From a virus (taxonomy: Duplodnaviria; Caudoviricetes): 55,997 bases of DNA. The number at the start of each line of letters is the position of its first letter. Position 1 is the first letter of the stretch. The position numbers and the translations under genes were made by a program. The notes below the pieces were generated by a model, which had not been told where the DNA came from, searched no databases, and worked only from the letters and a program-made list of their open reading frames with translations. Shown in pieces: positions 2,747 through 41,052 of the stretch. The stretch spans positions 1 to 55,997 of the IMG/VR virus record IMGVR_UViG_3300030330_001659, one strand, 5' to 3'.

Positions 2747-2877
2747 AAAAAGGATTATGGGCTAATATACATGCTAAGCGTAAGCGTGGTGAAAAGATGC
2801 GTAAGAAAGGTGCAAAAGGTGCACCTACAGCTGCAGCAATGGCAACTGCACAGCGTAGTAAAAAGAAGAAGAAGTAG
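2743..2877 (+). CDS. Small highly basic protein, 44 aa
   Basis: Hand-translated MKKGLWANIHAKRKRGEKMRKKGAKGAPT...KKKKK; overlaps the holin stop. Confidence 0.75.
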   Translation: MKKGLWANIHAKRKRGEKMRKKGAKGAPTAAAMATAQRSKKKKK

Positions 2878-2893
2878 TGTCTCCTATTAGAGA
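2878..2893 (+). promoter_or_regulatory. Candidate phage-RNAP promoter (linear class) upstream of nrdJ and the tail/ejection module
   Basis: TGTCTCCTATTAGAGA; one of 4 intergenic copies of TGYCYCCTATTAGAGA, all oriented with the downstream genes. Confidence 0.8.
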
Positions 2894-9555: not shown

Positions 9556-10113
9556 ATGGGAAGTGGAGGCGGAGGCACTACTACTCAGGTAGCAAACTCA
9601 GGGATAGCTGATCAATTTGCGCCATACGTAGAAAGAGTTTTATCAGACGTTACTGATATGTATGAGGCTGATAGATTAAAAGGCCCTGAATCTGTTGTAG
9701 CAGATCTTACTCAAGAGCAAAAAGATGCGCTTACTGCACAAAAAGGTTTTGCTCAAGATATGATGGCAGGTACAGGTATTTTTGATACTGCTGCAGCTAG
9801 AGAAGCAGACTTAAAAGGTATATTAGGTAGTAGTATGGGACAAGCAGCTACTGGTGGTATGCTAGGTTCTGCTAGATCTCAGGCTGCTATGAATCAAGCA
9901 TTAGCTGATAGATCTTTAGAGTTTGCAAAAGACAGACAGCAAACCGCCTTGGGTGGGTCAGACTTGTTAGGAGACGTAGGTAGCGTACAGCAAGCTTACA
10001 AACAACAGCTATTAGATGCTGATGATACTATGGCTACTAGATACTTTGGCTATTTAGGATCACAAGCAGTGCCTCGATCAACTACTACTACACAAACAGG
10101 AGGCGGCAAATGA
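9556..10113 (+). CDS. Internal virion (ejection/pilot) protein
   Basis: MGSGGGGTTTQ start, Ala/Gln-rich helices, GGMLGSAR motif. Confidence 0.7.
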   Translation: MGSGGGGTTTQVANSGIADQFAPYVERVLSDVTDMYEADRLKGPESVVADLTQEQKDALTAQKGFAQDMMAGTGIFDTAAAREADLKGILGSSMGQAATGGMLGSARSQAAMNQALADRSLEFAKDRQQTALGGSDLLGDVGSVQQAYKQQLLDADDTMATRYFGYLGSQAVPRSTTTTQTGGGK

Positions 10114-10790
10114 TAAGTCTAGCACAACCTATGATAGGTATGGCTCCTATGCAAGCAAGAAGAGAAGACCCACAAGTACCTATGCTTCAACGTAAACAAT
10201 CACCACTAGGTATGGCTACTGATATAGCAGAAACTAAAGCTATAGATTATGCATTAGGACAAGTAGGAAAAGAAGGAGCAAAGAAAGCGCTTTCTGCTGC
10301 AGGTGGTGCAATGATGGGACCTATGGGTGCAATAGGTGGAGAAGTTGTAGGTGAAATGCTAGCACCGTTCTTAAAAAGTTTATTCTTTGCAAGAGGTGGT
10401 TATGCAGGACCATTAGCTTTAGCACCAGGTGGAGAAGTAACTAATGGTGTACCTAAAAAATATAAAGGGTTTTCTAAACTACCTGAAGCCGTACAGCAAA
10501 AGATAGATCCAGAGTTAGCTAGAAAATATAATGAAGGAGCTTTTGTAATGCCAAAGTCTGGTGAAGAACTAATGTTTGGTAATATGGGTATGTCACCTAC
10601 TTCTGTTGATAGTGTGTTTCAAAACTTTTTGCGATCAGGTAAAATGCCATTAGGCGCAGGATATAGTATTAAACCTGATATGGGTAAGGGTAGCGGAAGC
10701 TTAACGTTAGAGTACGAAATATCTAAAGACCCTTCTAGAAATATGATGACCGGCATAAAGAATATGTTTAATAATTTTAGAGGACGTTGA
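10110..10790 (+). CDS. Putative internal virion protein
   Basis: Gly/Met-rich amphipathic segment and KGFSKLPEAVQQKI motif; within the ejection cluster. Confidence 0.6.
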   Translation: MISLAQPMIGMAPMQARREDPQVPMLQRKQSPLGMATDIAETKAIDYALGQVGKEGAKKALSAAGGAMMGPMGAIGGEVVGEMLAPFLKSLFFARGGYAGPLALAPGGEVTNGVPKKYKGFSKLPEAVQQKIDPELARKYNEGAFVMPKSGEELMFGNMGMSPTSVDSVFQNFLRSGKMPLGAGYSIKPDMGKGSGSLTLEYEISKDPSRNMMTGIKNMFNNFRGR

Positions 10791-10791
10791 T

Positions 10792-11517
10792 ATGGCAGTA
10801 GGTTTTAGAGGCAGTTCTTCATTAGGAGGATCAACAGGTATAGATTTTGATAGTGATTATTTTGATATTCCAGTTACTCCGTTAAATAAAATAGTACCAA
10901 GAACAGACTACTCAGCTCCAGTAACGGGTGGTAATGAAGTAGCGTTAGGCAATACTTTTGATTCTGCTGCTTTTAATCAAAGCTATGATGTACCAGTAAT
11001 AGATCCTGCTATGTATGGTAGTTCTATAATGGACCGTAGCGAAGGACCTCCCATGTTATCCGAACCCGATTATTTTACCAAGGGTAAAGTTTTAACGGAG
11101 CAAGATATACAAAATTATTTAAATGATACTGAAGGTTTTGTATATAATCCAAGCACAAATAACTTTGAAGGTGCCGGAGATTATACATACCCACTAAGTA
11201 AAATAGCTCCCGGTTATTCTGATACACAAGAAAAGCTTATGTTAGGTATAAAGCCAGGTGTAACAACTGGTGATCAGCTAAGAGATATAGAGTTAAATAG
11301 ATTAAATACACAAAAGCTAGCATTTGAAGTTCCTATGGGTGAAGGTGTGGATATGTTTGATAATTATAATGAAGCCTATACAGGATTTGACAGCTCAGGA
11401 AATTTTACAGGAGCTCCATTGGATCTTGGTACGCAAGCTATGAATGATATACCTGACTACAGTCAACCTACACAAAGTGTATTTGATGAAGGTGGAGCTT
11501 TTGGAGGAAAACAATAA
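10792..11517 (+). CDS. Acidic hypothetical virion-module protein
   Basis: 241 aa Asp-rich ORF tightly packed in the operon. Confidence 0.65.
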   Translation: MAVGFRGSSSLGGSTGIDFDSDYFDIPVTPLNKIVPRTDYSAPVTGGNEVALGNTFDSAAFNQSYDVPVIDPAMYGSSIMDRSEGPPMLSEPDYFTKGKVLTEQDIQNYLNDTEGFVYNPSTNNFEGAGDYTYPLSKIAPGYSDTQEKLMLGIKPGVTTGDQLRDIELNRLNTQKLAFEVPMGEGVDMFDNYNEAYTGFDSSGNFTGAPLDLGTQAMNDIPDYSQPTQSVFDEGGAFGGKQ

Positions 11518-14489
11518 TGCAGCTTAAAAAGTTTACAAGAAAAGACCGACATGGGAATATGATGTCTTTTGAATTTGACGTACCGCAAGCTAATGTACCT
11601 GCTATGCAATCAATTCCTATGTATGACCATCCAGGCGAACCTAAAGGTACAGATACCGTGCCAGCTTGGCTTACACCCGGTGAGTTTGTAGTAAACAAAG
11701 AAGCCACAGAAATGTTTGGTCCTACAATAAAAAAGATGAACGATATAGGTAGGCAAAAACAAAATCAAAACAAAGCTATGTACGCACAAACAGGTACAGA
11801 AGTACTATCTCGTGGCTTATTAGATGAAGATGAAGCATTCCAAACTCAGCTTAATAAAATGCTAGACAAGTACGAAGGATCAGAGTTTACTAAAGATAAG
11901 CTATATAACATTATAGATGGAGAAAGTAGCTTTGACCCTACTGTTAAGAACAAAGAAAGCAGTGCTACTGGTTTATTTCAGTTTACTGATACTGCTATAA
12001 ACGATTTAAAAGATCAGGGTAAGATAGATAAAGACTTTACTACATCCGATGTTGCAAGTATGAGTCCCACTGATCAATTAAAACTGTATGAAACATACTT
12101 AGACAGATGGAAGTATGGTGGAGATGCGCATTTAGGAATTATGCAAGCAGCTCCTGGTAAATATTTTGAAAAATTTAGAAGTGGTGATAACAAAGGAGAC
12201 TTAAATCAAGAGGTTTTTGCTAAAGGTAGTGACAGCTATGAACGAAATAAAGTTTGGGCAGGCGATGATGGCAAAATGACTTTTGCTAGTATCTCAAATT
12301 ACTATGATAGTAGAGCTAAAGATAAAATACCTGGTGTTACTGTGGCAAAACTTCAACCAGATACGTCTGCTAGCCCTACACAGGTGGCCGCTGACGCGTC
12401 TTCAGTACCTTCTATGAATATAGGTATACCGCCAAGGGACATGTCCTCTATGGAGCCGATTGCAGGGCCAAGTTCTGGTAGAATTGCTAGAGTTATGGGT
12501 AATAGACAGCCATCTAATGAGTATACTAACTTCCTTAGAAACTTAAATATAAACAAAGGGGTTATGCCTAACAGAAATGTTACGCTAGATACAAGACAAA
12601 TACCTGGTGTAAACCCAATGTTAGACATAAATAAACCAGCTGGCGTACCGATACCTACAGGAGTAGTTGATGGTAAGCGTGTAGCGTTAACACCTGAATA
12701 TTTAGATGCAATGCAAGATAATGATATGGGTGGATTAGGGGCAGACTCGCAAGTATTTAAAGATTTTGTTGGTAGTAGGTTAAGAGTGCCTGTAACTAAA
12801 GCGCCTCCTAGTCAAGTTATACCTAAAGTTTCAGAGATTGCTGATATACCAGGTGTTGCAACTGTACCAGATGAGCAAAAGAGAGGTCAAACGCGTCAAC
12901 GATATGATCTATACGAAGGTACAGACAGACCAACAAGTCAACAAGAACTTGATCGAAGAGCTATGGAAAACTTTAATCCTCCAGAACTAGATAGACTTGT
13001 TGATAGTATGCAAGCAGATATTAATAAACAAAATGCACCACAGTTTTTAAGTGATGACGAAATAAAAAGATCTGAAGGTCTTGGTAAAGAGATTCAAGCT
13101 ATTGATGATTTTGCTAGAAGAGCTGGTAAATATTTAGTTAGCCCTAAAGAGTTTAAAAACGAAAGAGGTCTTACAGGTAAACAAGAAGAAAAGGCACAAG
13201 CAGATTTAGCAAAGATGGAAAAGCTAGAGCCTATTGAGAAAGGCTACGATCAAAAACAAAGAGTTGCTACAGAAATAGAGAAACAAAACAAAAATCAAAC
13301 AGGGCCTGGGCCAGATCAGCCAGGTAATAATGCTGATCCTGATACTGTTAAGAACACAGGGTCTAATGCTCCTGCTGCAGAACAAAATAAAACAACTAGT
13401 TTTCTAAAAGGTTTGTTTGGTAGCTTGTTTGACACTGATGAACTAAAGCGTATGGCTGTAATGTATCTTGGTTCTAGATTAATGGGCTATAGTCATGGTG
13501 GTAGTTTAAGTTTTTCTGTTAAAAACTACTTACAAAGAGTTGATGCTAAAGAAAAGGCTGCTGTAAAGTTTGCAACAAGCGCGGGTGCAGCTAAAGCTTA
13601 TACTGCTAAGTCACTAGCTAAGTATGCAAAGAGTGGTAACATAACAGATTTAATTCCGTTACCTAGACAGCTCATATCTACAGGAAATGCTACTACTTTC
13701 TATGGTAATAAAAACGGCAAAGACTTTAAAATACAAGTTATGGAGTATAAAGCTGGTGCAGGAGATAACGCTCCTAGAGTATTTTTAGATAAGTTTGGTA
13801 ACGAGCATAACCCTCTTGACTATGACTTAGATCCTATATATAATAAAAACAGCCCTAAACATAGAGATGCTTTAGACTCATACACAAAAACTTTTGCAGA
13901 TGTTATGACTTCTGTTAGAGAAAAAGTTAGTCTTTTAAGTATAGATAAAGGAAAGAAAACGTATGTAGACGATGTAATTCCTGCAACAGATGCTGGAGCT
14001 GTAGCATCTTGGGCATTAGATAATAAAGTAGAACTACCTAGAATGCCTCAGTTAATTGAGTTAGCTTACAGAGATATGGTAGAAGATGCAGGTAGAGGAT
14101 ACAAAGCTACTAGTATTGTTGGCTATTTAGATTCTCTTAAAATTAGAGAAACTATTTTAGATGGTACAGAAGCAGATAGACTATTTAGATTAGAGCCTGA
14201 TACAGAGCAAGAAAAAGCTAGAGGTTTTGGTAAGCCTGTTGACGCTAAAGAGTTTACAAGGTTACGAGATAACGCAGTTAGATGGTTAAGAATTACTAAG
14301 CCTGAGCTATCTGGAATACCAAATCAAGAAGTAGCTATAGGAGCTTTTCAAGAGCTAGTAAGTCAATGGAATACTTTAACTGATGAGCAACAAGCTCAAT
14401 GGAATAAGAAGGCTTCTAAAACAACAACTGGTTTTATGGAATGGTCTAAAGCATCTATAAACAATGTACTTAGCACAATGGTGGATTAA
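11517..14489 (+). CDS. Large ejection protein with a lytic transglycosylase (SLT-like) domain
   Basis: IDGESSFDP...SATGLFQF SLT signature; N-terminal GTDTVPAWLTPGEFVVN motif. Confidence 0.75.
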   Translation: MQLKKFTRKDRHGNMMSFEFDVPQANVPAMQSIPMYDHPGEPKGTDTVPAWLTPGEFVVNKEATEMFGPTIKKMNDIGRQKQNQNKAMYAQTGTEVLSRGLLDEDEAFQTQLNKMLDKYEGSEFTKDKLYNIIDGESSFDPTVKNKESSATGLFQFTDTAINDLKDQGKIDKDFTTSDVASMSPTDQLKLYETYLDRWKYGGDAHLGIMQAAPGKYFEKFRSGDNKGDLNQEVFAKGSDSYERNKVWAGDDGKMTFASISNYYDSRAKDKIPGVTVAKLQPDTSASPTQVAADASSVPSMNIGIPPRDMSSMEPIAGPSSGRIARVMGNRQPSNEYTNFLRNLNINKGVMPNRNVTLDTRQIPGVNPMLDINKPAGVPIPTGVVDGKRVALTPEYLDAMQDNDMGGLGADSQVFKDFVGSRLRVPVTKAPPSQVIPKVSEIADIPGVATVPDEQKRGQTRQRYDLYEGTDRPTSQQELDRRAMENFNPPELDRLVDSMQADINKQNAPQFLSDDEIKRSEGLGKEIQAIDDFARRAGKYLVSPKEFKNERGLTGKQEEKAQADLAKMEKLEPIEKGYDQKQRVATEIEKQNKNQTGPGPDQPGNNADPDTVKNTGSNAPAAEQNKTTSFLKGLFGSLFDTDELKRMAVMYLGSRLMGYSHGGSLSFSVKNYLQRVDAKEKAAVKFATSAGAAKAYTAKSLAKYAKSGNITDLIPLPRQLISTGNATTFYGNKNGKDFKIQVMEYKAGAGDNAPRVFLDKFGNEHNPLDYDLDPIYNKNSPKHRDALDSYTKTFADVMTSVREKVSLLSIDKGKKTYVDDVIPATDAGAVASWALDNKVELPRMPQLIELAYRDMVEDAGRGYKATSIVGYLDSLKIRETILDGTEADRLFRLEPDTEQEKARGFGKPVDAKEFTRLRDNAVRWLRITKPELSGIPNQEVAIGAFQELVSQWNTLTDEQQAQWNKKASKTTTGFMEWSKASINNVLSTMVD

Positions 14490-17400
14490 TGGCAATATCA
14501 GCTGATAGAGTAGCAGAAAGGTTATTAGGTAAAGATCTTAATGACGATTATGCTTTTATTGACGGAGATACTCTGGCTTCTACTAGTGAAGTAGATCAAT
14601 ATGGTAATCCATTAAAGTTTAGAATGAAAGGCATAGATGCGCCGGAAGTTACAAAAGTATTTGGTGCTGATAACGTTGCATTAGGAACTGCAGGATCTGA
14701 AAAAGCTAATGAAGCGCTAATGCAGTTAGCAAAGAAAGAAGGTTTTACTAACGTATTTCGTACAGGTAAGTTTGATCCTAATGGTCGTGAGCTAATAGAT
14801 TTACAGGATGACAAAGGTAGAAGTTGGGAACAAACGTTAGTAAGAACTGGTGTATTAAATCCTACTAGATATTCTTCTGAAGGTGCAATAAGATCCTATA
14901 AAGCAGCTCAAGCACTAGGCACTGACGGTCTAGGAGAAAACTACGACTTAGCAAGAAACGTTATTGCAGAAGCTATAGCTGATGAAACAAAGTATGAGCA
15001 AAGATTTAGACAAAAAGCTATAGATGAAACACAGCTTGCATATACTGGTGGCCTATACGCTTCTAATAACGTTATGTTTAGAGATCGATCGAGAGATTTT
15101 GAAAACAAAGCTATGAGTCCTTTTTCTACAGCTTGGGATATAGGTCTTACTGGCGCTATAGAAGGATTATATGGTGCTGTCGAGCTTATAGGAGAAACTT
15201 CTGGTTGGGACTGGGCTAAAAACGTAGGTGAAGCTGGTATATATAGAGCTAGAGAAAAGCTACAAAAGAATCCTGAAGTAGTTACTAGTTATAAAGATAT
15301 TGATGGGTTCTTTGGTAAAGAAGGATTCTTGCAATATGTTGCTAACAACGGTGCTATATCTTTACCTTATATGGCAGCTACTATAACTGGTGCAGTTGCT
15401 GCTCCTTATGTAGGGGCTAGTGCGTTAGGTGTTGCAGCCACAGGTGCTGTGTTATCTCCTGTTGCTTTATATACAGGTACAATATGGAACGACCAAGAAG
15501 GTGATAATAAAAATGCTTACTTAGCTGTAGCCGGTGGTGTATCGCAATCTGTATTAGATAGATTAGGTCTTAGGTTTTTGAATCCAGCTGCATTGTTAAC
15601 TAAAGAAGGCAGACAACAAGCTATTACAGCCATGACAAATAATGCTGATGACGTAGCAGGTAGAGCGATGCAAGCTAGAAATAGAGCTTTATTTGGTAGA
15701 ACTATTACTAGCGAAGAAGATGCTAGAAAAGCGTTGCTAACATTATCAAGACAAGAAGTAGCTAAATACGCTGATGATGCTGCAAGATTTGCTAAGAATC
15801 AAATTACTGCTAGAAACGTGGCTAGAAATCAATTAACTCGTATTGCTAAAGCAGGTGCTGGTGAAGGTATAACAGAAGCTTTACAAGAAGCTATTGGTTA
15901 TACTGCTGCACATACTGCTAATGGTTTTAGAGACTGGGATGCTAATGAGTTTAAAGATAGACTTATAGATGCTACTATTGCTGGTACATCTCTTGGTGGT
16001 GCTATATCAATACCAGGTGGTGTATACGATTATGGTGCATGGGTAGATGTAGCATACAGAACTGGGCCAGATACAGGTCGACAAACGTCTGATATGGGTA
16101 GATTAGCACAACAAGATATAGAGGCTAATGGTCAACAGTATAATGTACAACAAGAAAATGCAAGAGTAAAAGCTGCTACAGATAATATTAATCAAAGAGT
16201 AGAAGCACTACAACAAAGATTATCAAATAGACGATTAAACAGAAGAGAAAGACAACAAGCAGAATCTGAGTTAGCAGAGCTAGGTGGCGTAGATCTTAAC
16301 GATAGAGCTGATGCACACGTAGCGGCTAAACAAGACAGAGCTGTAGGTCAAATTGCTAAAGACTGGTGGAAAGGTATACCTGGTTTATGGCGAGGTATGA
16401 CTAGATTTATGTTTGATAACCAAGGTGGTATACAACAAGACTCTGTAACTGCTAGAATACTAGGTGAATCTGTAGGATCTAACTTACAACGATCTGTTTC
16501 TGGTGAAACATATGAAAACAGAAAACATAACTTAATTTCTGAGATTAAATACAGACTAGGAGATGTGTCAGATTTACTTGCTGCGTTTGGTAGAACTGAT
16601 AAACGTAAATCTAGATTAGAATTTAGTGAGCAATACTATGAAGTATTTGAAGCTGCAAGATCTAGAGCAGCCAGAGAAAATAGAGATATAAACTGGGATA
16701 TAGACTTACCTGAAAACTTACAACCTTTTGCTAATGCTTTTAGAAATTTTCATAATAAACTTATAGAAACAGGTGACAGACTACATAACATGCAAGCAGT
16801 TCATAATCCTGAACTAGGTTATGTAAATGATTATTTATCTAGGTATAAGTCATTAGATAAACTAGCTATAGAAAACAATAGAGCTGAGTTTGAATTAGCA
16901 CTTACTAACATTATTAATGACGAAGGTCAACAAGTACTTACACCACAAGCAGCTAAAGAACTTACAGATCAAATACTACAAATAGATGGAGCTGATGTTC
17001 CTTCTAACTTTACACTTGATGGTGGGTTTTCTGTTACTGACAGATCTACGTTTAGACCACAGTCGCATAGAGGTAGAACATTAAACCTTTCTGATAGAGC
17101 AGAGTTTAAGCAGTTTATGGAAAGAGATATATTTACTAACGTATCTAATGCTGCTAAGTCTGCTGTAAGATATACAGTATTAGAAGAGTATGTAGGTAGT
17201 AACAATGCTAAGCTTAATTATAGATTAAATAAAATAGAAGAAGAGCTTATAGAGTCTGGTAAGTATACTGTTGATGAAGCAAGAGCTAGAGTTAATAAAC
17301 TTGCGTTTGATCTTAAAAACTACTTTGATGCTGAGTCAGGTAACTACAAGAGAAACATACCACCTATACTTAGGCATGCACAAAAGAACATATTATTTGT

Positions 17401-18583
17401 AACTACTATTACTGGTTTGCCACTAGCTACACTATCTAATTTTGTTGAGCTAGGTTTGACTAGTGTTGGGCTAACACAAAAACAAATTTTTGGTGAGAAA
17501 GGTAGTATTAACTCTATAGCTAGATCGTTTGCAGATGAGTTTGGAAATACTGCTAATAGATTGTATGGTACTATAGCTAACCAACCAGCACCACATAAAA
17601 GAGGTAGGTTTGGTCATGCTATATTAAAGAAGCTAGGTTTCTTTGATTGGGAAGTTGGTGCTGCTCATACAACAGGTGTTAGTGAAACAGGTAGATGGCA
17701 CCAAAGAATACTTGATATGTACTTTAAGACTATCTTATTACAACAATGGACTAACGCTGCACGTGCTGCAAGAGCTGCTATAGCTTTAGATTACATTAGT
17801 GATAAGGTAGCTATAATGGTAGCTGCAAGACAAGCAGATATAACAACTAACGAGTCTCGAGAAGCAGAAGAGGGGCTAAGAAACTTAGGATTAGACACAC
17901 AGTTTTTACTTAGATACCATACTGGTTTTGTTAGAGACGAGCAAACAGTATTACCTAATCAAGATGTAAGACAGCAGTGGGAAAGAATGATTAATGATGC
18001 TACATTTAACTTTATAAATGAAGCTGTTGCATTACCACAGTCTGCAAACAGACCTTTGATATTTCAAGATCCAAGGTTTGCTTTGTTTACACAGTTTCAA
18101 GGTTTTATAGCTACGTTTACTGCTAACCATATACCTAAAATGTATACTCAGTTAGCTAAACGTGGTACTCCAGCAATGAAATACAACATATTTGCTACAG
18201 TATCTACAATGATACTATTAGGATTTGTATCTCAACACCTAAAAGATTTATTAAAGTACGGAGAAACTACACCTTACTTTAAAGGTATGGAGTATATTAG
18301 AAGAGGGGTAGGAGCTAGTGGACTACTAGGTACAAGTGAAAGAGTTATTGACTTTGTTTTCCCAATGTATGACAAAAGATATGGCTCAAATGTAGAATGG
18401 TTCTTTGGTACAATAGCTAGTGAATCAGCTGGTGTAAGTAAAGCACTTAGAATAGGTGATATAACCGCTGATGTCATAACAGGAGAAAAGCCACCAGAAA
18501 CTATAGTTAAAGTTACACCGATAGCACAAGTTGCTTATCAACAAATAGATAAACAAGCTTATAAATGGGGTTTTGGAGAATAA
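14489..18583 (+). CDS. Large ejection protein with an N-terminal staphylococcal-nuclease (thermonuclease)-like domain
   Basis: IDGDTL, RMKGIDAPE and DPNGREL motifs in the first ~120 aa; the rest is helical, with a hydrophobic Ala/Gly-rich segment. Confidence 0.75.
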   Translation: MAISADRVAERLLGKDLNDDYAFIDGDTLASTSEVDQYGNPLKFRMKGIDAPEVTKVFGADNVALGTAGSEKANEALMQLAKKEGFTNVFRTGKFDPNGRELIDLQDDKGRSWEQTLVRTGVLNPTRYSSEGAIRSYKAAQALGTDGLGENYDLARNVIAEAIADETKYEQRFRQKAIDETQLAYTGGLYASNNVMFRDRSRDFENKAMSPFSTAWDIGLTGAIEGLYGAVELIGETSGWDWAKNVGEAGIYRAREKLQKNPEVVTSYKDIDGFFGKEGFLQYVANNGAISLPYMAATITGAVAAPYVGASALGVAATGAVLSPVALYTGTIWNDQEGDNKNAYLAVAGGVSQSVLDRLGLRFLNPAALLTKEGRQQAITAMTNNADDVAGRAMQARNRALFGRTITSEEDARKALLTLSRQEVAKYADDAARFAKNQITARNVARNQLTRIAKAGAGEGITEALQEAIGYTAAHTANGFRDWDANEFKDRLIDATIAGTSLGGAISIPGGVYDYGAWVDVAYRTGPDTGRQTSDMGRLAQQDIEANGQQYNVQQENARVKAATDNINQRVEALQQRLSNRRLNRRERQQAESELAELGGVDLNDRADAHVAAKQDRAVGQIAKDWWKGIPGLWRGMTRFMFDNQGGIQQDSVTARILGESVGSNLQRSVSGETYENRKHNLISEIKYRLGDVSDLLAAFGRTDKRKSRLEFSEQYYEVFEAARSRAARENRDINWDIDLPENLQPFANAFRNFHNKLIETGDRLHNMQAVHNPELGYVNDYLSRYKSLDKLAIENNRAEFELALTNIINDEGQQVLTPQAAKELTDQILQIDGADVPSNFTLDGGFSVTDRSTFRPQSHRGRTLNLSDRAEFKQFMERDIFTNVSNAAKSAVRYTVLEEYVGSNNAKLNYRLNKIEEELIESGKYTVDEARARVNKLAFDLKNYFDAESGNYKRNIPPILRHAQKNILFVTTITGLPLATLSNFVELGLTSVGLTQKQIFGEKGSINSIARSFADEFGNTANRLYGTIANQPAPHKRGRFGHAILKKLGFFDWEVGAAHTTGVSETGRWHQRILDMYFKTILLQQWTNAARAARAAIALDYISDKVAIMVAARQADITTNESREAEEGLRNLGLDTQFLLRYHTGFVRDEQTVLPNQDVRQQWERMINDATFNFINEAVALPQSANRPLIFQDPRFALFTQFQGFIATFTANHIPKMYTQLAKRGTPAMKYNIFATVSTMILLGFVSQHLKDLLKYGETTPYFKGMEYIRRGVGASGLLGTSERVIDFVFPMYDKRYGSNVEWFFGTIASESAGVSKALRIGDITADVITGEKPPETIVKVTPIAQVAYQQIDKQAYKWGFGE

Positions 18584-18584
18584 C

Positions 18585-21500
18585 ATGGCAACAAGGATAA
18601 ATCCACAAAGTGGTTTAATGGAATTTGTAAAAGAACGAGAAGCTACGGGGGCTGTTTTAGATGAAAGACTTAGAAACAAAACACCCGTAGAGTCTTTACA
18701 ACAAGAAGGCCCTGCAACTTTAGCCGTAAAACCACAACCTATACGTCCTACACCAGCACCTTTTGTTTTACCTGAAGAACAAAAAGGTAGAGTAGATCAG
18801 ACAGCAGCTAGAGATAGGTTTGCACAACAAATAGCACAACAAGATGCTGCTAGACTTGCTCAAACGGCTGAGCTACAAAGAGAAGCTGAAAGAGTAAAGC
18901 CTATTAGTGAAATAGAGCCTGATGTTAAAGAGTTTGATGCTTACGAAAATGATGGTTTTGGCGAAGCTATTACGAGATCTAATAAATACATTCAGCTACT
19001 TTATGATAAGCTAGAATCTGGTGCTACAGTTACAGGAGCTTACTTATCACCAGCTCAAGGACTACCTATAGCTGCAGGCTTATCTCCTGTAGAAGCCGGA
19101 GAAGCTTCTGGTCAGTCAATAAACGTTAACTCTACAAAAGGTATACTGTTTGATCCTAAAGGATTTAATGCAGGTAAAATAAGAGGTGATGATGTAACTC
19201 AAGTAGATCCGTTGTTTGCTAGAGTTATGTCTATTATGACTGAAAGGTTTATATATCAAAATCAGTACAACGCTAAACCTGATCAGCAAACAGATAATAC
19301 AGATGATTTTACTGAAGCGACTTTACGTGAAACAGATCAAGTAAAACTAACAGATGAAGGTAAATTAAGACGTGGTTTAGGTAACCAACAGTTAGGTAGA
19401 GAAATATATAGAGCTTGGAAACGTGAACAAAACATAGCTCAAGGCAGACCTTCTGATGAGTACACTATGAAAGGTGTAACCGGAGATCAGTTTGAAACAA
19501 TAGGTACGCTTGCAAAAGAAATGTATCATGCTGCTAATCCTGAATTATATAATAGAATATCAGATTCTTTTAACAGAACAGTAGAATATGAGCTTACTAC
19601 TACCGGTGCTGCTGCTATGGAGGCTGCTGAAAAAGCTTCTCCTGCTATATTTACTGGTTATGAAATAAAACCTTCATCTGCTCCTAGATCTAAGTTAGCA
19701 CTTACTGAATCTGGGTTAGGAGAAGGAGCTAAGTATAGAAAAACTAAAACTACTTCTGTTGTAGATCGTAAAATGGCAGAGATAGAGGAAGCTGCAGAGA
19801 ATATGCATAGCGTTGCTCATGGTGTAGATCCTCTTAGAAGAAAGCTTTATATACAAATAGCCGTACAAGTTCTTACTGGTATGAAAGATAGAACTAGGCC
19901 ACCTGAACTAGGCGACTTACTTAAGATAGGTCCAGCTAAGTTTATAGCATTTAAAGGTGAGTATGCTAAAAAGCAACAAGACGATCCTAATCCTGATTAT
20001 AATCCTGCATTTGAAATGGAAAAGCAAGTTACTAGGTTTATAGAAAGTTTAAACACTATTGGCACTTATAGTAATAAAGCTAATCATTTAGATTTTGCCG
20101 TGCAAGAACTACAAAGTCGTATGCATGCTACACAAACAAGATTTAATCCTCAACTAGTTCCGTGGATTAGGTTTGTAACAGGAGGTATTAGACCTCCTAC
20201 TGTAAATCCTAATGCTAATACTCCTGCAACAGTAATGTTTAAAGAGTTAATGGCAAAACATTTTTTACCAGGTGCGGATAAGTTACTTCCTGAAAATAGA
20301 GTTGCTGCATTTGATACTGAATGGAACAGCCCTAACCATGGCGCTTTTGCTAATATTGTTGCTGATGGAAAAGGTATAGCAGATAGTTTACTAACGCCTG
20401 AACAAGATCAAGATGCTATAACAAAGCTAAAACAAATAAAGTTAACAGAAAAAGGAGTTACTGTACCTCCTGAGTTAGCTAATATACCAAGACTAACAAT
20501 TGGAGATTCATTAAAGAGTAAAGCTATTGGTGAAGAACTAGAAGGCTTAAACTTAATTGAAGCTGCTCATGAGCTATATCAGTTTGATAAAGCACAAAAG
20601 AACAACACAACGTTTAAGAGCAATATATCTGTAGAACTAGATGGTAAAACTCATGGACCAGCTAGTAACCTAATGCAATTAGGATCTATGAAGGCTGCAT
20701 TTAGAGCTGGTGTTTTGAGAAGAGAAGGAGCTACTAAAAACTTAGATACTATACCTATAAAAGAATTGTATCAAGGAGCACAAACAGACGACGAGTTAGC
20801 TGCTGGTGATATTAGAGATGGTATGAAGTATTTCATGGAAGAGAATGGTGACAAACATGCTCAAAACTATTTACCTAATAACGCAGCTTCTGCTCACTTA
20901 GTTAGTATACTTAAGTTAGCTTTAAAAGATAGGGACAACTTTCTTAAAAAGCCACCTATGACGCTTGCTTATGGTCAGTTACTTAAAAACTTAGATGCTG
21001 CTATATATGAAACAGTATTTACTGGTCCTCAGTCTGTAGCAATAAGAAACATTATAAACGGCAACTCAGATTTACCTTCTATATTAGATAAAAAGATACA
21101 ACAAAAGATGGATGCAGAAGGTGGAATGCTGATACCGTCTAGAGAAGATATGGTAGTTGAGTTCTTACACGATATATTAGCAGACTCTATTGATGCTGAG
21201 TTAGATCCAGGTGTCGTACAAGTAGGACAACTACTAAGAGCAAACAATGTTGTTGCTATGTTATCTGATGAGGTTATAAAAGTTAAGAATGCTATAGGTA
21301 TTGACAACTACATTGGTGCTAAAAGCTCTGTTATGAAAGATGTAGAAGGAAATATTGGTGTAGTATTCGGAGATACTTCTAATGTAAAGAGAGCAGGTAA
21401 CGTACCGTTGTATAGAAGTATGCCTTCAGGTAGTGCTATAAGAGAAGGTAAGCCCGGTGGCTGGGGTAGAGGTAGAATTATACCTGCTGTTATCCAAGGT

Positions 21501-22160
21501 ATAGATGGTGCCTGGATGAATAGAATGTTTACTGGTAAATCGTTTGCGCAGTTAAAGCGTAACTACATGCTACCTATTATGGATGCTGTTAAGACAGATC
21601 TAGATGGAGCAGCAAAAGTACGTGATCTTGCTAATAAAAATTGGTGGGATGTTATCAACGAGTATTCTTATGTCGACAGTATTATGGGAGACTGGACACC
21701 CGGAGCTATAGAAAGGTTTAGAACCAAGCTCAAAAATATCGGGGATACTAAGGTTGAAATAAGTATGGATAATGAATATAGAGGATTTTTCTTTCTATTA
21801 CATGATCTTGAAAAAACACCTCCTATTTTTGATTCGGGTAATCTTATAAAAACTTTGTATGATACTATGGAGCACCCTCCTAGAAAACAAGGAGTAGCCG
21901 TTGGAAAATACGAAGCGTTTAAAAAATCTAGAGCAGCAAAAGCTGCAGATAAATTACTTCCTAATGCTGCAAGAGCACAAGGAAGAACGTTAAATGAACT
22001 AACTGGTGATCAAATGTTAAGATTGTTTGACAATATTATAGGACCTAATGGCTTAAACCTTGAGTCGCGCAATCGTCAAACAATGAAAGATGTCGGTGAA
22101 GCTAAAAATAAACTTACGAGAGCCGCTAAGGGCTCCCGTATATTGCAAATAGATATGTAA
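18585..22160 (+). CDS. N4-like virion RNA polymerase (stand-alone, mini-vRNAP-sized, ~1190 aa)
   Basis: Ordered motifs SRMH..RFNPQ, VELDGKTHGP (A), RDNFLKKPPMTLAYG (B), IPAVIQGIDG and LPIMDAV (C); last gene of the ejection cluster; ATG 18585 has a GGAG RBS (the ORF track starts at TTG 18573). Confidence 0.8.
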   Translation: MATRINPQSGLMEFVKEREATGAVLDERLRNKTPVESLQQEGPATLAVKPQPIRPTPAPFVLPEEQKGRVDQTAARDRFAQQIAQQDAARLAQTAELQREAERVKPISEIEPDVKEFDAYENDGFGEAITRSNKYIQLLYDKLESGATVTGAYLSPAQGLPIAAGLSPVEAGEASGQSINVNSTKGILFDPKGFNAGKIRGDDVTQVDPLFARVMSIMTERFIYQNQYNAKPDQQTDNTDDFTEATLRETDQVKLTDEGKLRRGLGNQQLGREIYRAWKREQNIAQGRPSDEYTMKGVTGDQFETIGTLAKEMYHAANPELYNRISDSFNRTVEYELTTTGAAAMEAAEKASPAIFTGYEIKPSSAPRSKLALTESGLGEGAKYRKTKTTSVVDRKMAEIEEAAENMHSVAHGVDPLRRKLYIQIAVQVLTGMKDRTRPPELGDLLKIGPAKFIAFKGEYAKKQQDDPNPDYNPAFEMEKQVTRFIESLNTIGTYSNKANHLDFAVQELQSRMHATQTRFNPQLVPWIRFVTGGIRPPTVNPNANTPATVMFKELMAKHFLPGADKLLPENRVAAFDTEWNSPNHGAFANIVADGKGIADSLLTPEQDQDAITKLKQIKLTEKGVTVPPELANIPRLTIGDSLKSKAIGEELEGLNLIEAAHELYQFDKAQKNNTTFKSNISVELDGKTHGPASNLMQLGSMKAAFRAGVLRREGATKNLDTIPIKELYQGAQTDDELAAGDIRDGMKYFMEENGDKHAQNYLPNNAASAHLVSILKLALKDRDNFLKKPPMTLAYGQLLKNLDAAIYETVFTGPQSVAIRNIINGNSDLPSILDKKIQQKMDAEGGMLIPSREDMVVEFLHDILADSIDAELDPGVVQVGQLLRANNVVAMLSDEVIKVKNAIGIDNYIGAKSSVMKDVEGNIGVVFGDTSNVKRAGNVPLYRSMPSGSAIREGKPGGWGRGRIIPAVIQGIDGAWMNRMFTGKSFAQLKRNYMLPIMDAVKTDLDGAAKVRDLANKNWWDVINEYSYVDSIMGDWTPGAIERFRTKLKNIGDTKVEISMDNEYRGFFFLLHDLEKTPPIFDSGNLIKTLYDTMEHPPRKQGVAVGKYEAFKKSRAAKAADKLLPNAARAQGRTLNELTGDQMLRLFDNIIGPNGLNLESRNRQTMKDVGEAKNKLTRAAKGSRILQIDM
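22104..22140 (-). terminator. Possible intrinsic terminator of the minus arm, inside the 3' end of the vRNAP gene
   Basis: 10-bp stem at 22115-22140 with one G-U pair on the minus strand, followed by AGTTTATTTTT. Confidence 0.35.
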
Positions 22161-22340
22161 CTAACCACATATATCAGAGTGGTATAGGTGATATAAGTCA
22201 TTTTGCTCTACGTATTTCTTTATAAAGCTTTGAGTATAATGTATCTCACTGCCATTAAGAAACACAATGCCATATTTATATATGAAAGCAATGTCTTCTT
22301 CATCTATACCTATTTGCCCATTGTTTTTTATCTTAATCAT
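22161..22340 (-). CDS. Hypothetical protein, 59 aa
   Basis: Hand-translated MIKIKNNGQIGIDEED...; starts 2 nt after the RNAP stop and fills the gap exactly up to the vRNAP stop. Confidence 0.55.
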   Translation of the reverse strand: MIKIKNNGQIGIDEEDIAFIYKYGIVFLNGSEIHYTQSFIKKYVEQNDLYHLYHSDICG

Positions 22341-22342
22341 GA

Positions 22343-24706
22343 TTATGAAAAGAAGTAGTCGCTATCTTGTATAGCTTCTACATCTAACTCCCCTAGTTTA
22401 TAGTTGTAATTAAAGTTTTCAGGTTCTAGCAATAGCATTTCTGCTATATCCTTATAGAAATCCTTATGATTGTACATTTTAATGAACACTTCTTTAGTTA
22501 AACTTAATAAGCTAGCTACATCACAAGCGTGAGTAGAAAATGAATCATGAATTGCAGCAAAGTCACCGTCCCAATGATGGATAATAAGTGCCATATGAGC
22601 TGCGTCCATACTATGTATGAAGTTAGGGCTTATACCTGATGCAAAGCCACCAGGACTAGGTATCTTTTTACCATACACTAGCCTATGTTCTTTGCCTACG
22701 TGTTGTATCCTCATATCAGAGATCCAGCTTTTCCACTTTACGTCTTCCATTACGTAGTTTTCATAACGTACTGGGAAGCCGGAAGGCGTAGTCCATTCGA
22801 CAACTGGCTCTTTCAAGTCAGATATTATGTGATTTGCTATTGCCTGTAGGTAACTCATAGTCTCGAGTGGACCTGGACACACCTCATCTATAGCTTTTAT
22901 TAAGTTATATGACAAGTCGGTACAGTCACTCATAGTAATATCGTACTTACTATGGAATCCTTCGGCATAACAATCAGCATACATGTTCAAAGCTATGGCT
23001 AAGTGGCCCGCAGAGTACGCTCTAGTCATCGCTCCGCGTTTCGATATACCTTTCCTTATGTGTTTCATAGGCATGTCTCTCTGCGCGAACCAGTCAGGTA
23101 CGCGAGATATCAATGCTTTAGCTGTTTGCACATAAAAGTCCTTAGGTATATCAGTTTTTACTAAACCTACTAGCTCACCTGCCTTTTTATCCTTAGATAT
23201 AGCAGCAAGGTGTTGCCAACCATTATTAGAACCATCAATAGGAATAGGTAGGCTTAAGTAATACACGCCACTTTCCTCTTTTTGATCCCATAAACCACAC
23301 CACGCTTTACAACAAGCAAGAAAGCTTACGCCTTTTTCTGCTTTGTCGTGTATAGTACGGTTATTCCAGGTGTTTCTAATGAAATCCTCATTATGAATTA
23401 CCCATTTTACCCTATCATCGATAGTCATTTTGTCGACTGATATGTCTGTAAGTCCTTCATCTTCAAGATGTGACTTGTAATCAGCTTCACACCAGTCAGG
23501 TATGTTATCGATAGTATAAGATTGGTTGTACGTACAAGCCGTATGTACAGCAAAATAGTATAAACCCTCTTCAGTCATCGGTTTTGCATTAGCAAATTTG
23601 AGTAGACCACGTTCCATATCTTTACCTTGATAGTTTAAATATGACTCACGGTAGTATAGCCTGCCACGATAGTCTGCATCTACATACTGAAAGAAGACTT
23701 TATCCTTTAATGCTTCGGCTTTCTGTATAGTCATGTTGTATGCATCAAACTTACTACGGTTTTTAAGTAATACTAACTTAGCATTCCAGTGAGTAGCAGC
23801 TTCATCATACTTAGCCTGAGCTTTTTCCAATAGCTTTTTGTTAGGCTTATTACGTAGCTTGTTAGTTAAACGTCGTAACTCGCTGTAATATTTCTTTTCC
23901 AAAGACTTATTGCCTAACTCTGGTTTAAAGACGGTATTATTCCAGTATAAGTCTTTGCCTTGTAACTCATCGTTGTTACCAAAAATGCAGTAACGGTAGT
24001 TCTTACCGGTCTCATCTGATACCTTTAAGGTTTCAGTTACAAACTTACGTTTGTTTTTCTTTACTGCTTCCAAGATGTCGTTATCAATAGTCCATGCTGT
24101 TCGTTGCAGCTTGTTTATTGCATTAACAAATGGTTGATCTAACAGATCCTTGAAATCTTGGTCCTTATCATATCCCCAATGCTTAATAACAGGATGTCCG
24201 TTTTCCTGAAACAAATGATGGACACGATTAATTTTAGTAAATGAGGTATTTTGTATTAGTTCATTGACTACATCAGACGGTAATGATCCTATTTGTAACC
24301 ACTTATCTGATGTTTCAATCATGTACGGTGCCCGGCTAAATGGCTTTTTACCTACCGGGTTTTTCTCCCATTCAACTTGCGCTTCAGTAGGAGCTCTAAA
24401 TATTTTTATGTAACCACATTCATAAAAACCTTCTAGAACTAGGTCGCCGACTGTTACGTCGGCTCTAAATCCTAGCTCTACACCTTGTCTTAATAATACG
24501 TTTTTGCCTATTGCAACTGAAGCTGCAGTAAGTTTACACGTAGCTGACTCAGATGTAGACGTTTTTCTAAAGTGATATTGTAGTATAGTTAATGCATCAT
24601 ACACCAGCTGTTTAGGCTGTAACTCATGTTCGAGTACTAGCTTCACTGCCCATCGTTGAGGCGTGCTGAGTATCTTCTGCTCTAGATAATCTATTATATT
24701 CTGCAT
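22343..24706 (-). CDS. T7/T3-type single-subunit DNA-directed RNA polymerase
   Basis: DYRGRLY, IDGSNNGWQH (A), KRGAMTRAY (B), PNFIHSMDAAH and IHDSF (C); 787 aa in a single chain. Confidence 0.95.
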   Translation of the reverse strand: MQNIIDYLEQKILSTPQRWAVKLVLEHELQPKQLVYDALTILQYHFRKTSTSESATCKLTAASVAIGKNVLLRQGVELGFRADVTVGDLVLEGFYECGYIKIFRAPTEAQVEWEKNPVGKKPFSRAPYMIETSDKWLQIGSLPSDVVNELIQNTSFTKINRVHHLFQENGHPVIKHWGYDKDQDFKDLLDQPFVNAINKLQRTAWTIDNDILEAVKKNKRKFVTETLKVSDETGKNYRYCIFGNNDELQGKDLYWNNTVFKPELGNKSLEKKYYSELRRLTNKLRNKPNKKLLEKAQAKYDEAATHWNAKLVLLKNRSKFDAYNMTIQKAEALKDKVFFQYVDADYRGRLYYRESYLNYQGKDMERGLLKFANAKPMTEEGLYYFAVHTACTYNQSYTIDNIPDWCEADYKSHLEDEGLTDISVDKMTIDDRVKWVIHNEDFIRNTWNNRTIHDKAEKGVSFLACCKAWCGLWDQKEESGVYYLSLPIPIDGSNNGWQHLAAISKDKKAGELVGLVKTDIPKDFYVQTAKALISRVPDWFAQRDMPMKHIRKGISKRGAMTRAYSAGHLAIALNMYADCYAEGFHSKYDITMSDCTDLSYNLIKAIDEVCPGPLETMSYLQAIANHIISDLKEPVVEWTTPSGFPVRYENYVMEDVKWKSWISDMRIQHVGKEHRLVYGKKIPSPGGFASGISPNFIHSMDAAHMALIIHHWDGDFAAIHDSFSTHACDVASLLSLTKEVFIKMYNHKDFYKDIAEMLLLEPENFNYNYKLGELDVEAIQDSDYFFS

Positions 24707-25055
24707 TCATTCTCCTTGTTTTGCGAAAAGGATTCTGAGCTACATTAAGTAAGTCAGATCCCTTTCTTAGGCAACATTTTATCTCATGAGCTTCTACAAT
24801 AGTAGCTTCTTTGTCGGTCATTTGACCGCCTTTTATCTTAACAATATCTTGTATCTTGTAGTTATCAAGCTTATCTAGTAACCACACATGATGGTCATAA
24901 CTGCGGTTTGTAATCTGATAAGCTCGATGTAATGTACCTTTACCTACGTAAATTACTTCATCAGTCTCTGGGTCTTGATGGAAGTAAACACAATACATAT
25001 CTTCAGGATACCTAATAACTTCATTAGTGTTTTCTCTTATTTCAATGTTTCGCAT
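24624..25055 (-). CDS. GIY-YIG family endonuclease-like protein
   Basis: YCVYFH...IYVGKG..RAY, EA...E and LLN motifs. Confidence 0.7.
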   Translation of the reverse strand: MRNIEIRENTNEVIRYPEDMYCVYFHQDPETDEVIYVGKGTLHRAYQITNRSYDHHVWLLDKLDNYKIQDIVKIKGGQMTDKEATIVEAHEIKCCLRKGSDLLNVAQNPFRKTRRMNAEYNRLSRAEDTQHASTMGSEASTRT

Positions 25056-25489
25056 TCATGCACCTCCACACCATTATCTAATAAAAACTTTAATGCTTCT
25101 AACTCAGGTACTCGTTTACCGTTCTTATTAGATTTATACATTTCAGCATATATCATTCGCTTTATGCCTGCTTGTAATATAAGTTTAGTGCAGTCTTTAC
25201 AAGGTGAATGTGTTAAGTATAGCGTAGCATCTTCAGAAGAAGAAGTCGAAGCTGCTAGTTTAGTTATTGCATTTGTTTCTGCATGTACTAATTCCCATTT
25301 AGTATTACCATTAGCATCTCTTGTAGCGTTGTCCATACCATGAGGTGTACCATTCCAGCCATAGCTAAGGATCTTATTACCCCTAGCTATTACTGCACCT
25401 ACCTTGAAATGTTCATCACGAGATCTAAGAGCTACAACTCTAGCAATGTTCATGTACATCGCATCGTCCTTAGATAATTTCAAAGCCAT
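25037..25489 (-). CDS. dCMP deaminase
   Basis: KVGAVI, GWNG, HAETNAI and PCKDC zinc motifs. Confidence 0.93.
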   Translation of the reverse strand: MALKLSKDDAMYMNIARVVALRSRDEHFKVGAVIARGNKILSYGWNGTPHGMDNATRDANGNTKWELVHAETNAITKLAASTSSSEDATLYLTHSPCKDCTKLILQAGIKRMIYAEMYKSNKNGKRVPELEALKFLLDNGVEVHECETLK

Positions 25490-27095: not shown

Positions 27096-27453
27096 TATTT
27101 ATCTCCAGTTTCTCCTCGCCTCTTTTGACAAGGTGTTTATGTGCTTCTATTTCATAACAATATCTGTCGTTCCACTCAAATACTTTTTGCAACGCATCTA
27201 AAGACGGTTTAAGTACGTTATCTAGGTCTGACGCTCTGTTACTAAAGAAAGCGTTAAATACTATCTTAATGTCGGCAGCCCTTTCGAACTGCCAACTTTG
27301 ATCTTCAGTAGCTTCTTTGAATCGTTCAAGAAACTCCTTGTACTCTTTGGTCGGGTACGTCTGCGTGAAGTTCCTTCCGTCCTTCGTTCGTATCGCTCGT
27401 ATCCCTTCCATTCGGTTTGCGCTCATTGGCTTTCCCGGTATAACGATCTTCAT
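27073..27453 (-). CDS. rusA: RusA-like Holliday junction resolvase
   Basis: PMSAN and DLDNVLKPSLDAL..ND motifs; ATG start at 27453 (the ORF track extends to 27468). Confidence 0.8.
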   Translation of the reverse strand: MKIVIPGKPMSANRMEGIRAIRTKDGRNFTQTYPTKEYKEFLERFKEATEDQSWQFERAADIKIVFNAFFSNRASDLDNVLKPSLDALQKVFEWNDRYCYEIEAHKHLVKRGEEKLEINIEQLCRQ

Positions 27454-28144: not shown

Positions 28145-28290
28145 GTAATGTCCTTATATTTATCGCGTTTACGGTTATACTTTTTCTTATCAGGTATAAC
28201 CTGTTTAGCTTTCCTTTCACGCAGCATTGCTTTTGCTACTGGGTTTATTAATGGAAGCTTTATTTTTATTGGAACTCTTGGAACTCTCAT
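28141..28290 (-). CDS. Small basic conserved phage protein, 49 aa
   Basis: Hand-translated ...INPVAKAMLRERKAKQVIPDKKKYNRKRDK...; its stop overlaps the exonuclease start (ATGA). Confidence 0.65.
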   Translation of the reverse strand: MRVPRVPIKIKLPLINPVAKAMLRERKAKQVIPDKKKYNRKRDKYKDIT

Positions 28291-30519: not shown

Positions 30520-30547
30520 ATTTTTCCTTTCTAATATACTTTTAGTA

Positions 30548-30566
30548 GCGCGGGTTTATCCCGCGC
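30548..30566 (-). promoter_or_regulatory. Hairpin element (candidate vRNAP promoter) upstream of the polA-to-RNAP operon
   Basis: + strand GCGCGGG-TTTAT-CCCGCGC with flank ATACTTTTAGTAG matching the family consensus; ~29 nt before the polA start. Confidence 0.6.
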
Positions 30567-30762
30567 CTTTAAGTTCTTCTTCATACTTTTCTATTCGATT
30601 CTTTAAAACGATTATAGTTGTGTCAAACACTAGTATTGCGTCAAGCTTTTTATCACGCACTCTTGCATTTTGAATGTCGGTTAATGCTTTAACTTCTATC
30701 CTTAAGTGATTGATATGATTCATTAATTTACTTCTGCTCATAGTCTGGTTCGTCATCAACAT
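30556..30762 (-). CDS. Hypothetical coiled-coil protein
   Basis: 68 aa ORF packed in the operon. Confidence 0.6.
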   Translation of the reverse strand: MLMTNQTMSRSKLMNHINHLRIEVKALTDIQNARVRDKKLDAILVFDTTIIVLKNRIEKYEEELKGAG

Positions 30763-32108: not shown

Positions 32109-32117
32109 GTTATCTCC

Positions 32118-34373: not shown

Positions 34374-34465
34374 CAGATAAACCCTAAAGTATCTTACTAC
34401 TTATGTCACGTTATACATTAAGTCCTCTCGTGCTAAGAAGGCGTAGTACTGGGCGAGTATTCTGT

Positions 34466-35760: not shown

Positions 35761-35777
35761 CGCGAGCTTGTCTCGCG
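35761..35777 (-). promoter_or_regulatory. Hairpin element (candidate vRNAP promoter)
   Basis: + strand CGCGAG-CTTGT-CTCGCG, flank TTAGTTCAGGCAG; 32 nt before the DUF3310 start. Confidence 0.7.
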
Positions 35778-36545: not shown

Positions 36546-36562
36546 CGCGAGCTTGTCTCGCG
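36546..36562 (-). promoter_or_regulatory. Hairpin element (candidate vRNAP promoter)
   Basis: Identical 17-mer to 35761-35777, flank TTAGTATATGCAA; 46 nt before the SSB start. Confidence 0.7.
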
Positions 36563-36735: not shown

Positions 36736-36752
36736 TGCCAGCTTGTCTGGCA
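36736..36752 (-). promoter_or_regulatory. Hairpin element (candidate vRNAP promoter)
   Basis: + strand TGCCAG-CTTGT-CTGGCA, flank ATACTACGAGCAA; 33 nt before the next start. Confidence 0.7.
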
Positions 36753-36865: not shown

Positions 36866-36881
36866 TCTCTAATAGGGGACA
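36866..36881 (-). promoter_or_regulatory. Candidate phage-RNAP promoter (linear class) facing the replication arm
   Basis: Reverse complement TGTCCCCTATTAGAGA is identical to the copy at 41037. Confidence 0.8.
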
Positions 36882-36915
36882 GGCACATTTTCAGCAAATC
36901 ACTTCCTACCAGAAA

Positions 36916-37327: not shown

Positions 37328-37346
37328 AGCCCAGCTTGTCTGGGCT
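37328..37346 (-). promoter_or_regulatory. Hairpin element (candidate vRNAP promoter)
   Basis: + strand AGCCCAG-CTTGT-CTGGGCT, flank TTTCTATGAGAAA. Confidence 0.7.
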
Positions 37347-38399: not shown

Positions 38400-38576
38400 T
38401 ATACTCCTTTTTAAAATTGATCTCTTCCGGTCGACAATGTTGGATGTAGGAAGAGAAAGTTAATAGTTTAAGAAATTATATTTTATATATAATTTATGGA
38501 TGAAGAAAGGGGGGCGTAGAATATAAGGTGTATGTATATATATACTATTATTTTTCCTAAGTCTCTTTTAAGGAAG
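38400..38576. other. AT-rich divergence region between the two arms (likely location of the physical termini)
   Basis: Non-coding; inverted repeats TCTCTTCC/GGAAGAGA (38421-38456) and AAATTATAT/ATATAATTT; TATAAT on both strands. Confidence 0.5.
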
Positions 38577-38592
38577 TGCCTCCTATTAGAGA
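38577..38592 (+). promoter_or_regulatory. Candidate phage-RNAP promoter (linear class) heading the late arm
   Basis: TGCCTCCTATTAGAGA. Confidence 0.8.
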
Positions 38593-41034: not shown

Positions 41035-41036
41035 CC

Positions 41037-41052
41037 TGTCCCCTATTAGAGA
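41037..41052 (+). promoter_or_regulatory. Candidate phage-RNAP promoter (linear class) upstream of the head module
   Basis: TGTCCCCTATTAGAGA directly after a stop codon and before an AGGAG RBS. Confidence 0.8.

Follow-up and report, generated by a model that had tools for sequence, protein, structure and literature searches.

We provide evidence that the window analysed here, the complete 55,997-nt record IMGVR_UViG_3300030330_001659 of a marine tailed virus (Duplodnaviria; Caudoviricetes), carries a compact, free-standing relative of the giant virion RNA polymerase (vRNAP) of coliphage N4 next to an intact single-chain T7-type RNA polymerase (RNAP). The vRNAP-like gene (positions 18585..22160, plus strand) encodes a stand-alone single-subunit RNAP of 1191 amino acids (aa) without a single cysteine, recognised by its motifs, predicted fold, profiles and alignment. 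In all tests applied the protein behaves like the N4 vRNAP, yet it fails the size and domain definition of that family. We put the probability that this compact enzyme is packaged and is active in early transcription at roughly 0.7.

The initial annotation of this DNA had named a series of N4 motifs and proposed counterparts for them in the open reading frame (ORF). The motifs do exist in N4 gp50, and profile-profile alignment brings them in register with those of the window: SRMH (20115), NPQ (20145), ELDGKTHGP (20634), KKPPMTLAYG (20946), IPAVIQGIDG (21480) and PIMDA (21573). An AlphaFold2 model made from a 31-sequence alignment (predicted local distance difference test score, pLDDT, of 83.9) indicates that the protein folds as a single-subunit RNAP from about residue 80 to 1190, preceded by a low-confidence and probably disordered stretch (residues 1-71). 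Among the PDB matches listed by Foldseek there are only single-subunit RNAPs (T7, N4, mitochondrial), headed by the N4 vRNAP domain (9pnq, E 1.2e-13), and in a viral library the highest rows are vRNAP-type proteins from N4-like phages. Using VIA-align, the model was superposed on the N4 mini-vRNAP 3c46 (Z 22.2, root-mean-square deviation (rmsd) 7.8, 775 residues), on T7 RNAP (Z 23.9, rmsd 10.1, 627 residues) and on yeast mitochondrial RNAP (Z 21.9, rmsd 5.9, 726 residues), the top rows as a group having Z values of 20-24; identity to known RNAPs is very low in structure alignment (12-14%). In the viral library gp033 of Lactococcus phage KSY1 (820 aa) is a weak match to the polymerase model (E 9e-5, rank 46).

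Conservation was assessed in an alignment of the window protein with 124 of the longer relatives from a profile search (125 proteins, mean column identity 14%). Eleven columns are invariant, and all five catalytic-site residues are among them: R512, D686 (motif A), K788 and Y796 (motif B) and D1000 (motif C), with R424, D559, K670, Y678 and D951 as their N4 counterparts. Together with D974, which is likewise identical in 125/125, they share columns with N4 vRNAP and T7 RNAP in a joint alignment of 44 polymerases; the matching T7 and N4 residues are those that we take to be catalytic. The claim that both catalytic Asp residues and the motif-B Lys/Tyr are kept is borne out in all 125 aligned proteins. 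Motif B is complete in its Lys and Tyr but not in the Arg four residues before the Lys, a position held by Asp784 in the window protein and by Arg or Lys in 84 of the 125 relatives.

At the level of single sequences the kinship is hardly visible. The PHROG vRNAP match is weak (E 5e-6 over 45 residues), no polymerase emerged when the PDB was searched with the 1191-aa protein, by sequence or by profile, and a search of the ESM Atlas returned only scores below 0.8. With tblastn the sole phage isolates matched are 12 records (E 3e-3 to 8e-3), all of them vRNAP-type genes of N4-like phages; P0069, a distant relative, and gp33 of Roseobacter phage CRP-7 (MK613349, see below) brought up no further isolate when used as queries. 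Profile-profile comparison with hhalign is more outspoken: the window family aligns with 12 Schitoviridae vRNAP cores at 99.1% (E 4.6e-19, 710 columns) and with 87 T7-type enzymes at 91.9% (E 6.8e-7). We then built the phylogeny of both enzymes that had been suggested for checking the annotation (44 sequences, 425 columns, including 12 members of the window family, five of the CRP-7 family, 12 Schitoviridae vRNAPs and eight T7-type enzymes of the lineage itself). The window and CRP-7 families and the Schitoviridae vRNAPs form one branch (Shimodaira-Hasegawa-like approximate likelihood ratio test, SH-aLRT, 95.2; FastTree 0.954), and the eight T7-type enzymes (support 100) fall apart from it. 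Because of the profile-profile scores and this branch, a closer relationship of the 1191-aa protein to the N4 vRNAP than to the neighbouring T7-type enzyme is supported. An origin of the vRNAP-like gene by recent duplication of the adjacent T7-type gene was rejected, given the separate branches in the tree.

The stand-alone "mini" size that had been noted for the window protein proved to be the family norm rather than a polyprotein state. With an E limit of 0.001, a profile search yielded 351 clusters (50% identity), which is a minimum for the free-standing family; the best 150 of the 351 are all at most 1681 aa long. Long insertions or extensions at the N-terminus bring some relatives (L010, L018, L020 and L022) to 1500-1690 aa. 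A search among proteins of 2252-5000 aa gave a single weak match (3516 aa), which hints that fused giant forms are not common. We also considered a frameshifted or truncated giant vRNAP and rejected it, as the ORF ends are conserved and the 1364-aa ORF upstream is separate across loci.

The absence of cysteine is an indirect sign of injection. At the 1.3% Cys of nine other genes, a protein of 1191 aa would lack it with a chance of about 1e-7, and among the 125 relatives 117 have none and eight have one. Cysteine is also lacking in the five ORFs upstream of the vRNAP-like gene, in CRP-7 gp33-35 and in N4 gp50-52, and all 87 T7-type enzymes contain at least seven. The five upstream ORFs probably encode ejection proteins. 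They consist of three small ORFs (185, 226 and 241 aa; 9556..11517, plus strand; no PHROG match) at the start of the block, a 990-aa protein (11517..14489, plus strand) with a weak transglycosylase-type PHROG match at residues ~105-208, and, directly upstream of the vRNAP-like gene, a 1364-aa relative of CRP-7 gp34 (14489..18583, plus strand; PHROG 6958, virion structural protein). According to earlier studies, the ejection operon of Schitoviridae is characterised by a conserved loss of Cys (PMC11445570, PMC3821669), vRNAP is the final ejection gene in that family, and the N4 vRNAP is ejected last (PMC13434306). Because the 1191-aa protein is Cys-free and is the last gene of a Cys-free block, its packaging and injection are indirectly supported. 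The large upstream proteins may supply the roles of the domains at the N- and C-terminus (NTD and CTD) of the N4 protein. At the N-terminus of the 1364-aa protein (14489-14900, plus strand) we observed a DGDT...GIDAPE pattern, which we take to resemble staphylococcal-nuclease-type domains. KPP25 and JB8 show weak similarity to the 1364-aa protein and were dismissed as carriers of the system, no vRNAP-like gene following it in the stretches examined.

The genome is laid out as two opposed arms, a minus arm (replication, here also called early) running from ~38400 to 22343 and a plus (late) arm running from 38766 round the join to 22160; the ends of the 56-kb record overlap by 98 nt. The T7-type RNAP (22343..24706, minus strand) is the last large gene of the minus arm and, as the initial annotation stated, a single intact chain of 787 aa (12 Cys), with PHROG 414 (RNA polymerase, E 1e-102), PDB matches and the T7 catalytic columns all in agreement. 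Among isolates, CRP-7 gp30 alone matches it over 80% of the length (33% identity). The two polymerase genes indeed lie tail-to-tail, converging over a 182-nt gap, and a terminator-like hairpin with a T-run (22115..22140, minus strand; consensus match) is found ~200 nt past the stop of the T7-type gene, inside the vRNAP-like gene at its 3' end. The pairing of the two genes is fixed: in 93 IMG/VR loci (one set representing 80 of 101 stretches, with many near-duplicates), a convergent T7-type gene is present in 89, at 182-2377 nt from the vRNAP-like gene, and the other four loci end within 774 nt, i.e. are cut short. The T7-type gene is a single ORF of 694-807 aa in 84 of the 89, is cut by the locus end in one and is in two pieces in four; CRP-7-type loci have the T7-type partner in 9/9. 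In two loci (L052:13975-14304 and L054:13974-14303) an insert of ~330 nt interrupts the gene at the identical place directly after motif A, with the reading frame resuming in register behind it, possibly a self-splicing intron. Two-piece genes were seen in single contigs with a frame change (L017:3188-3207) or one in-frame stop (L029:4058-4128), which may be assembly errors.

The intergenic regions contain candidate promoters for the T7-type enzyme. An exact 11-mer occurs four times (0.04 expected), always between genes and inside a 17-base box that we take to resemble T7 promoters. Three of these boxes, whose promoter function is presumed, are directed along the late arm: one at the start of that arm upstream of terminase (38576..38592, plus strand), one further on (41036..41052, plus strand) and one upstream of the ribonucleotide reductase gene (2877..2893, plus strand), the last being the nearest to precede the tail and ejection genes. 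The fourth (36866..36882, minus strand) is aimed into the minus arm. Five copies of the same box are found in relative G001, and relatives G008, G009 and G010 have clade-specific boxes of their own in a similar layout. The T7-like boxes indirectly support late transcription by the T7-type enzyme, and since one box points into the minus arm, that arm is probably driven by it as well.

A second class of elements was found by sequence scan in the early arm, where genes of the window are preceded by five hairpins, each with a five-base loop and a stem that varies between them (6-7 bp). They are located (without strand) at 37328..37346 (7-bp stem; promoter or RNA leader element), 36736..36752 (6 bp), 36546..36562 (before the gene for the single-stranded DNA (ssDNA)-binding protein), 35761..35777 (6 bp) and 30548..30566 (29 nt ahead of the DNA polymerase start). 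Over 12 genomes, hairpins (some of them terminators) were counted 32 times in early-arm gaps (45 kb in total), seven times in late-arm gaps (33 kb) and 31 times in coding DNA (540 kb). Pentaloop hairpins in early-arm gaps amount to five in the window, seven in G004, two in G008 and one in G003, against 0.05-0.33 expected per strand; at 14/15 sites, position +12 from the loop centre is C and position +17 is A. For the stem pair 36550/36558 both partners are changed in a related strain (two contigs from one study). N4 promoters also have variable stems, at a fixed distance to the start, according to a review (PMC4496689). The exact 9-mer core of the hairpins is weak when taken alone (four against 0.9 expected, a count reached in 1/100 shuffles) and is not general in the relatives; three pentaloop hairpins also lie on the late strand of the window, and none of this type was found in G001. 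Relative G002 has three identical hairpins with T-runs (C1:17613, 19952 and 23392), 29-76 nt ahead of early-arm starts, at the places where the window has pentaloops. The available RNA libraries (three runs) consist of contigs, without information on starts, strand or level. The hairpins are real, with about even odds between an RNA leader and a vRNAP promoter.

Gene content identifies the phage as something other than a shrunken N4. The minus arm encodes small genes, the ssDNA-binding protein, thymidylate synthase, DNA polymerase, exonuclease, resolvase, primase/helicase, deoxycytidine monophosphate deaminase and the RNAP, whereas the plus arm starts with terminase at 38766 and continues through portal, capsid and tail fibres across the join (PHROG assignments). 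The capsid protein is 52% identical to that of CRP-7 and ~31% identical to those of pCB2047-C and of Pseudomonas phages that we presume to be of the LUZ24 type; no N4-like phage is among the best 40 of 305 capsid matches. Schitoviridae are defined by a heterodimeric RNAPII, an N4-type capsid and a genome of ~70 kb, against a single-ORF RNAP, another capsid and 56 kb here. The arms are opposed rather than in one direction and the capsid is not of the T7 type, which sets the phage apart from Autographiviridae. It belongs to neither family. Because its head genes are not N4-like, we assign it to a lineage of its own, of which CRP-7 is a member in culture.

CRP-7 has the same two-arm layout, in which a 1235-aa hypothetical protein (gp33) faces the T7-type RNAP gp30, and three large Cys-free ORFs (gp33-35). 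Gp33 carries the motifs, and its profile aligns with that of the window family at 55.8% (E 1.1e-4, 806 columns), although the two proteins are very distant: neither BLASTP nor a profile-to-single-sequence comparison gives a significant match between the window family and gp33. The model of an 83%-identical relative of gp33 has a single-subunit RNAP fold (pLDDT 73.6; Foldseek E 6e-8; Z 20.9, rmsd 4.7, 503 aligned), and the same fold is predicted for gp33 by extension. In the entire CRP-7-type family (gp33 at L004:17859-21566) Arg replaces the motif-B Lys, and Ala-Arg stands for Gly-Lys after the motif A Asp. The isolation paper, in the part accessible to us, names ORF30 alone as RNAP; gp33 is annotated as hypothetical.

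Summarizing these observations in a model, the 1191-aa protein would be an active natural "mini-vRNAP", made late and packed alongside the ejection proteins. It would be threaded unfolded across the host envelope, refold in the cytoplasm and transcribe the first minus-arm genes. The T7-type enzyme, whose gene stands at the distal end of the minus arm, would then take over at its own 17-base boxes, of which one would boost the replication arm and three would drive the late arm, including the virion polymerase for the next round. Several results weigh against this model. By Z-score the T7, N4 and mitochondrial RNAPs are tied as matches to the structural model, the longest alignment being that with N4. 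The tree consists of 425 columns of very distant proteins, so long-branch distortion is possible; the grouping of the window family with Schitoviridae alone reaches just 83.5 / 0.527, and the order within the joint branch is weak. The motif-B Lys is not universal, given the Arg of the CRP-7 family. The boxes did not surface in 7/11 relatives (in a crude 10-mer test, with three genomes partial), pentaloop hairpins occupy early-arm gaps in just 4/12 genomes, and the candidate early hairpins do not have the three-base loop of N4. Allowing G-T pairing, moreover, extends the stems of the 15 sites by 33 pairs in all on the coding strand, against 18 in a swap control and 10 in another control, and adds no pair on the template; the sites are not independent. 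This points to RNA rather than to N4-style promoters.

The extension by G-T pairs also fits a rival explanation, namely that the injected protein, though derived from a polymerase, mainly acts as a genome-pulling motor or as a maker of primers or short RNAs, early mRNA being made by the host RNAP and the hairpins being RNA leaders. A pulling role has been proposed for the vRNAP of phage DEV (PMC11445570), and the Lys-to-Arg change in CRP-7 fits as well. Still, the whole catalytic set is invariant in 125/125, sigma70-type matches are not above chance in the region 21500-39500 (50 against 57 +/- 6), and pulling driven by transcription would make early RNA anyway; we regard this explanation as unlikely. 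Somewhat less credit is due to the view that the polymerase is active but stays outside the virion, being made late to serve a late or very late gene class. The gene does sit in the late arm, its product has no N4 encapsidation and ejection domains, and two non-virion T7-type RNAPs are reported in the marine Autographiviridae AG-10.1 and AG-14 (PMC12361551); against it stands a family-wide Cys loss that is common to the ejection block and absent from the cytoplasmic polymerase, and T7-like boxes already stand in the late arm, where no third repeated box was found. A catalytically dead fold retained as a structural ejection protein, for which the low identity to known RNAPs and D784 at the motif-B Arg position might be cited, seems very improbable, since the invariant residues are the catalytic ones and a structural role does not need them.

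The packaged, early-acting mini-vRNAP is our preferred interpretation. A much broader proposal can only be made tentatively, and we would sooner doubt it than accept it: that aquatic podophages of a widespread but overlooked lineage, represented in culture by CRP-7, have their whole genome transcribed without the host RNAP, through an injected mini-vRNAP at hairpin promoters with five-base loops and a single-chain T7-type enzyme, and that this lineage keeps the state from which fusion with ejection domains gave rise to the giant N4 polyprotein.

Some further genes of the window deserve mention. Hsp20 (45793-46251) is flanked by portal and scaffold, and ribonucleotide reductase (2921-4657) is encoded in the late arm. 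Listed with them are a methyltransferase-like gene (31269-32108), thymidylate synthase (32866-33567) and a nucleotide pyrophosphohydrolase (30728-31276; all from PHROG), a possible base-modification cluster. Two endolysin-type genes (40412-40843 and 42658-43131) and a distant holin (2348-2746) were also assigned with PHROG.

The initial annotation knew of no description of the combination, and we found none of the compact family or of its pairing with a T7-type RNAP in the full-text literature (most subscription papers and supplements being outside the scope of the search). A 2023 metagenomic survey discarded vRNAP homologues below 2,500 aa (PMC10654107). The N4-type virion polymerase is held to be a giant hallmark of one family, and the free-standing family shows the strategy in an unrelated lineage. 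This raises the question of how packing and ejection of a polymerase can do without the N4 flanking domains, and bears on the origin of vRNAP. CRP-7 makes the two-polymerase interpretation testable in culture, and new compact RNA polymerases can be drawn from the family.

Among known systems, the closest is N4 gp50 itself (Schitoviridae; mini-vRNAP residues 998-2103, PDB 2PO4/3C46/9PNQ), which agrees in fold, in five catalytic-site residues in register, in the lack of Cys and in its position as final gene of a Cys-free ejection block; the size of the window protein is near that of the trypsin-defined 1106-aa mini-vRNAP (PMC4496689). In contrast, members of the window family are free-standing proteins of ~1,100-1,700 aa, whereas N4-type enzymes are described as polyproteins of 2,842-3,820 aa (PMC10654107). 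The window protein is about one third the size of the enzyme injected by N4, has neither NTD nor CTD and follows five Cys-free ORFs, where N4 has two; the head genes are unlike those of N4, and no N4-type promoter with a three-base loop was found. N4 RNAPII (the gp15/gp16 heterodimer) is likewise a second T7-family phage polymerase alongside a virion enzyme, but its counterpart here is one chain of 787 aa with T7-like boxes into both arms, while the late genes of N4 are read by the host RNAP. A 2015 review reports a heterodimeric RNAP in all vRNAP-bearing species but two, in which it is split further (PMC4496689). The Autographiviridae AG-10.1 and AG-14 also have two single-subunit RNAP genes per phage, but their extra RNAP is ~650 aa long, recognisably T7-like and, in the text available, not reported in an ejection block (PMC12361551). 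Different cases are the R22Y vRNAP (2,083 aa) and StenR_269 with Zobellviridae, for which vRNAP is an unsupported guess based on size; HTVC103P-type pelagiphages have no RNAP listed in the source as available. Finally, Alteromonas phage AD45 is another natural departure from the single 3,500-aa vRNAP, with two ORFs of 1404 and 2481 aa; it differs in that the polymerase part lies within the 2481-aa protein, which has two Cys, and in that no second RNAP was found according to the accessible text (PMC3821669).

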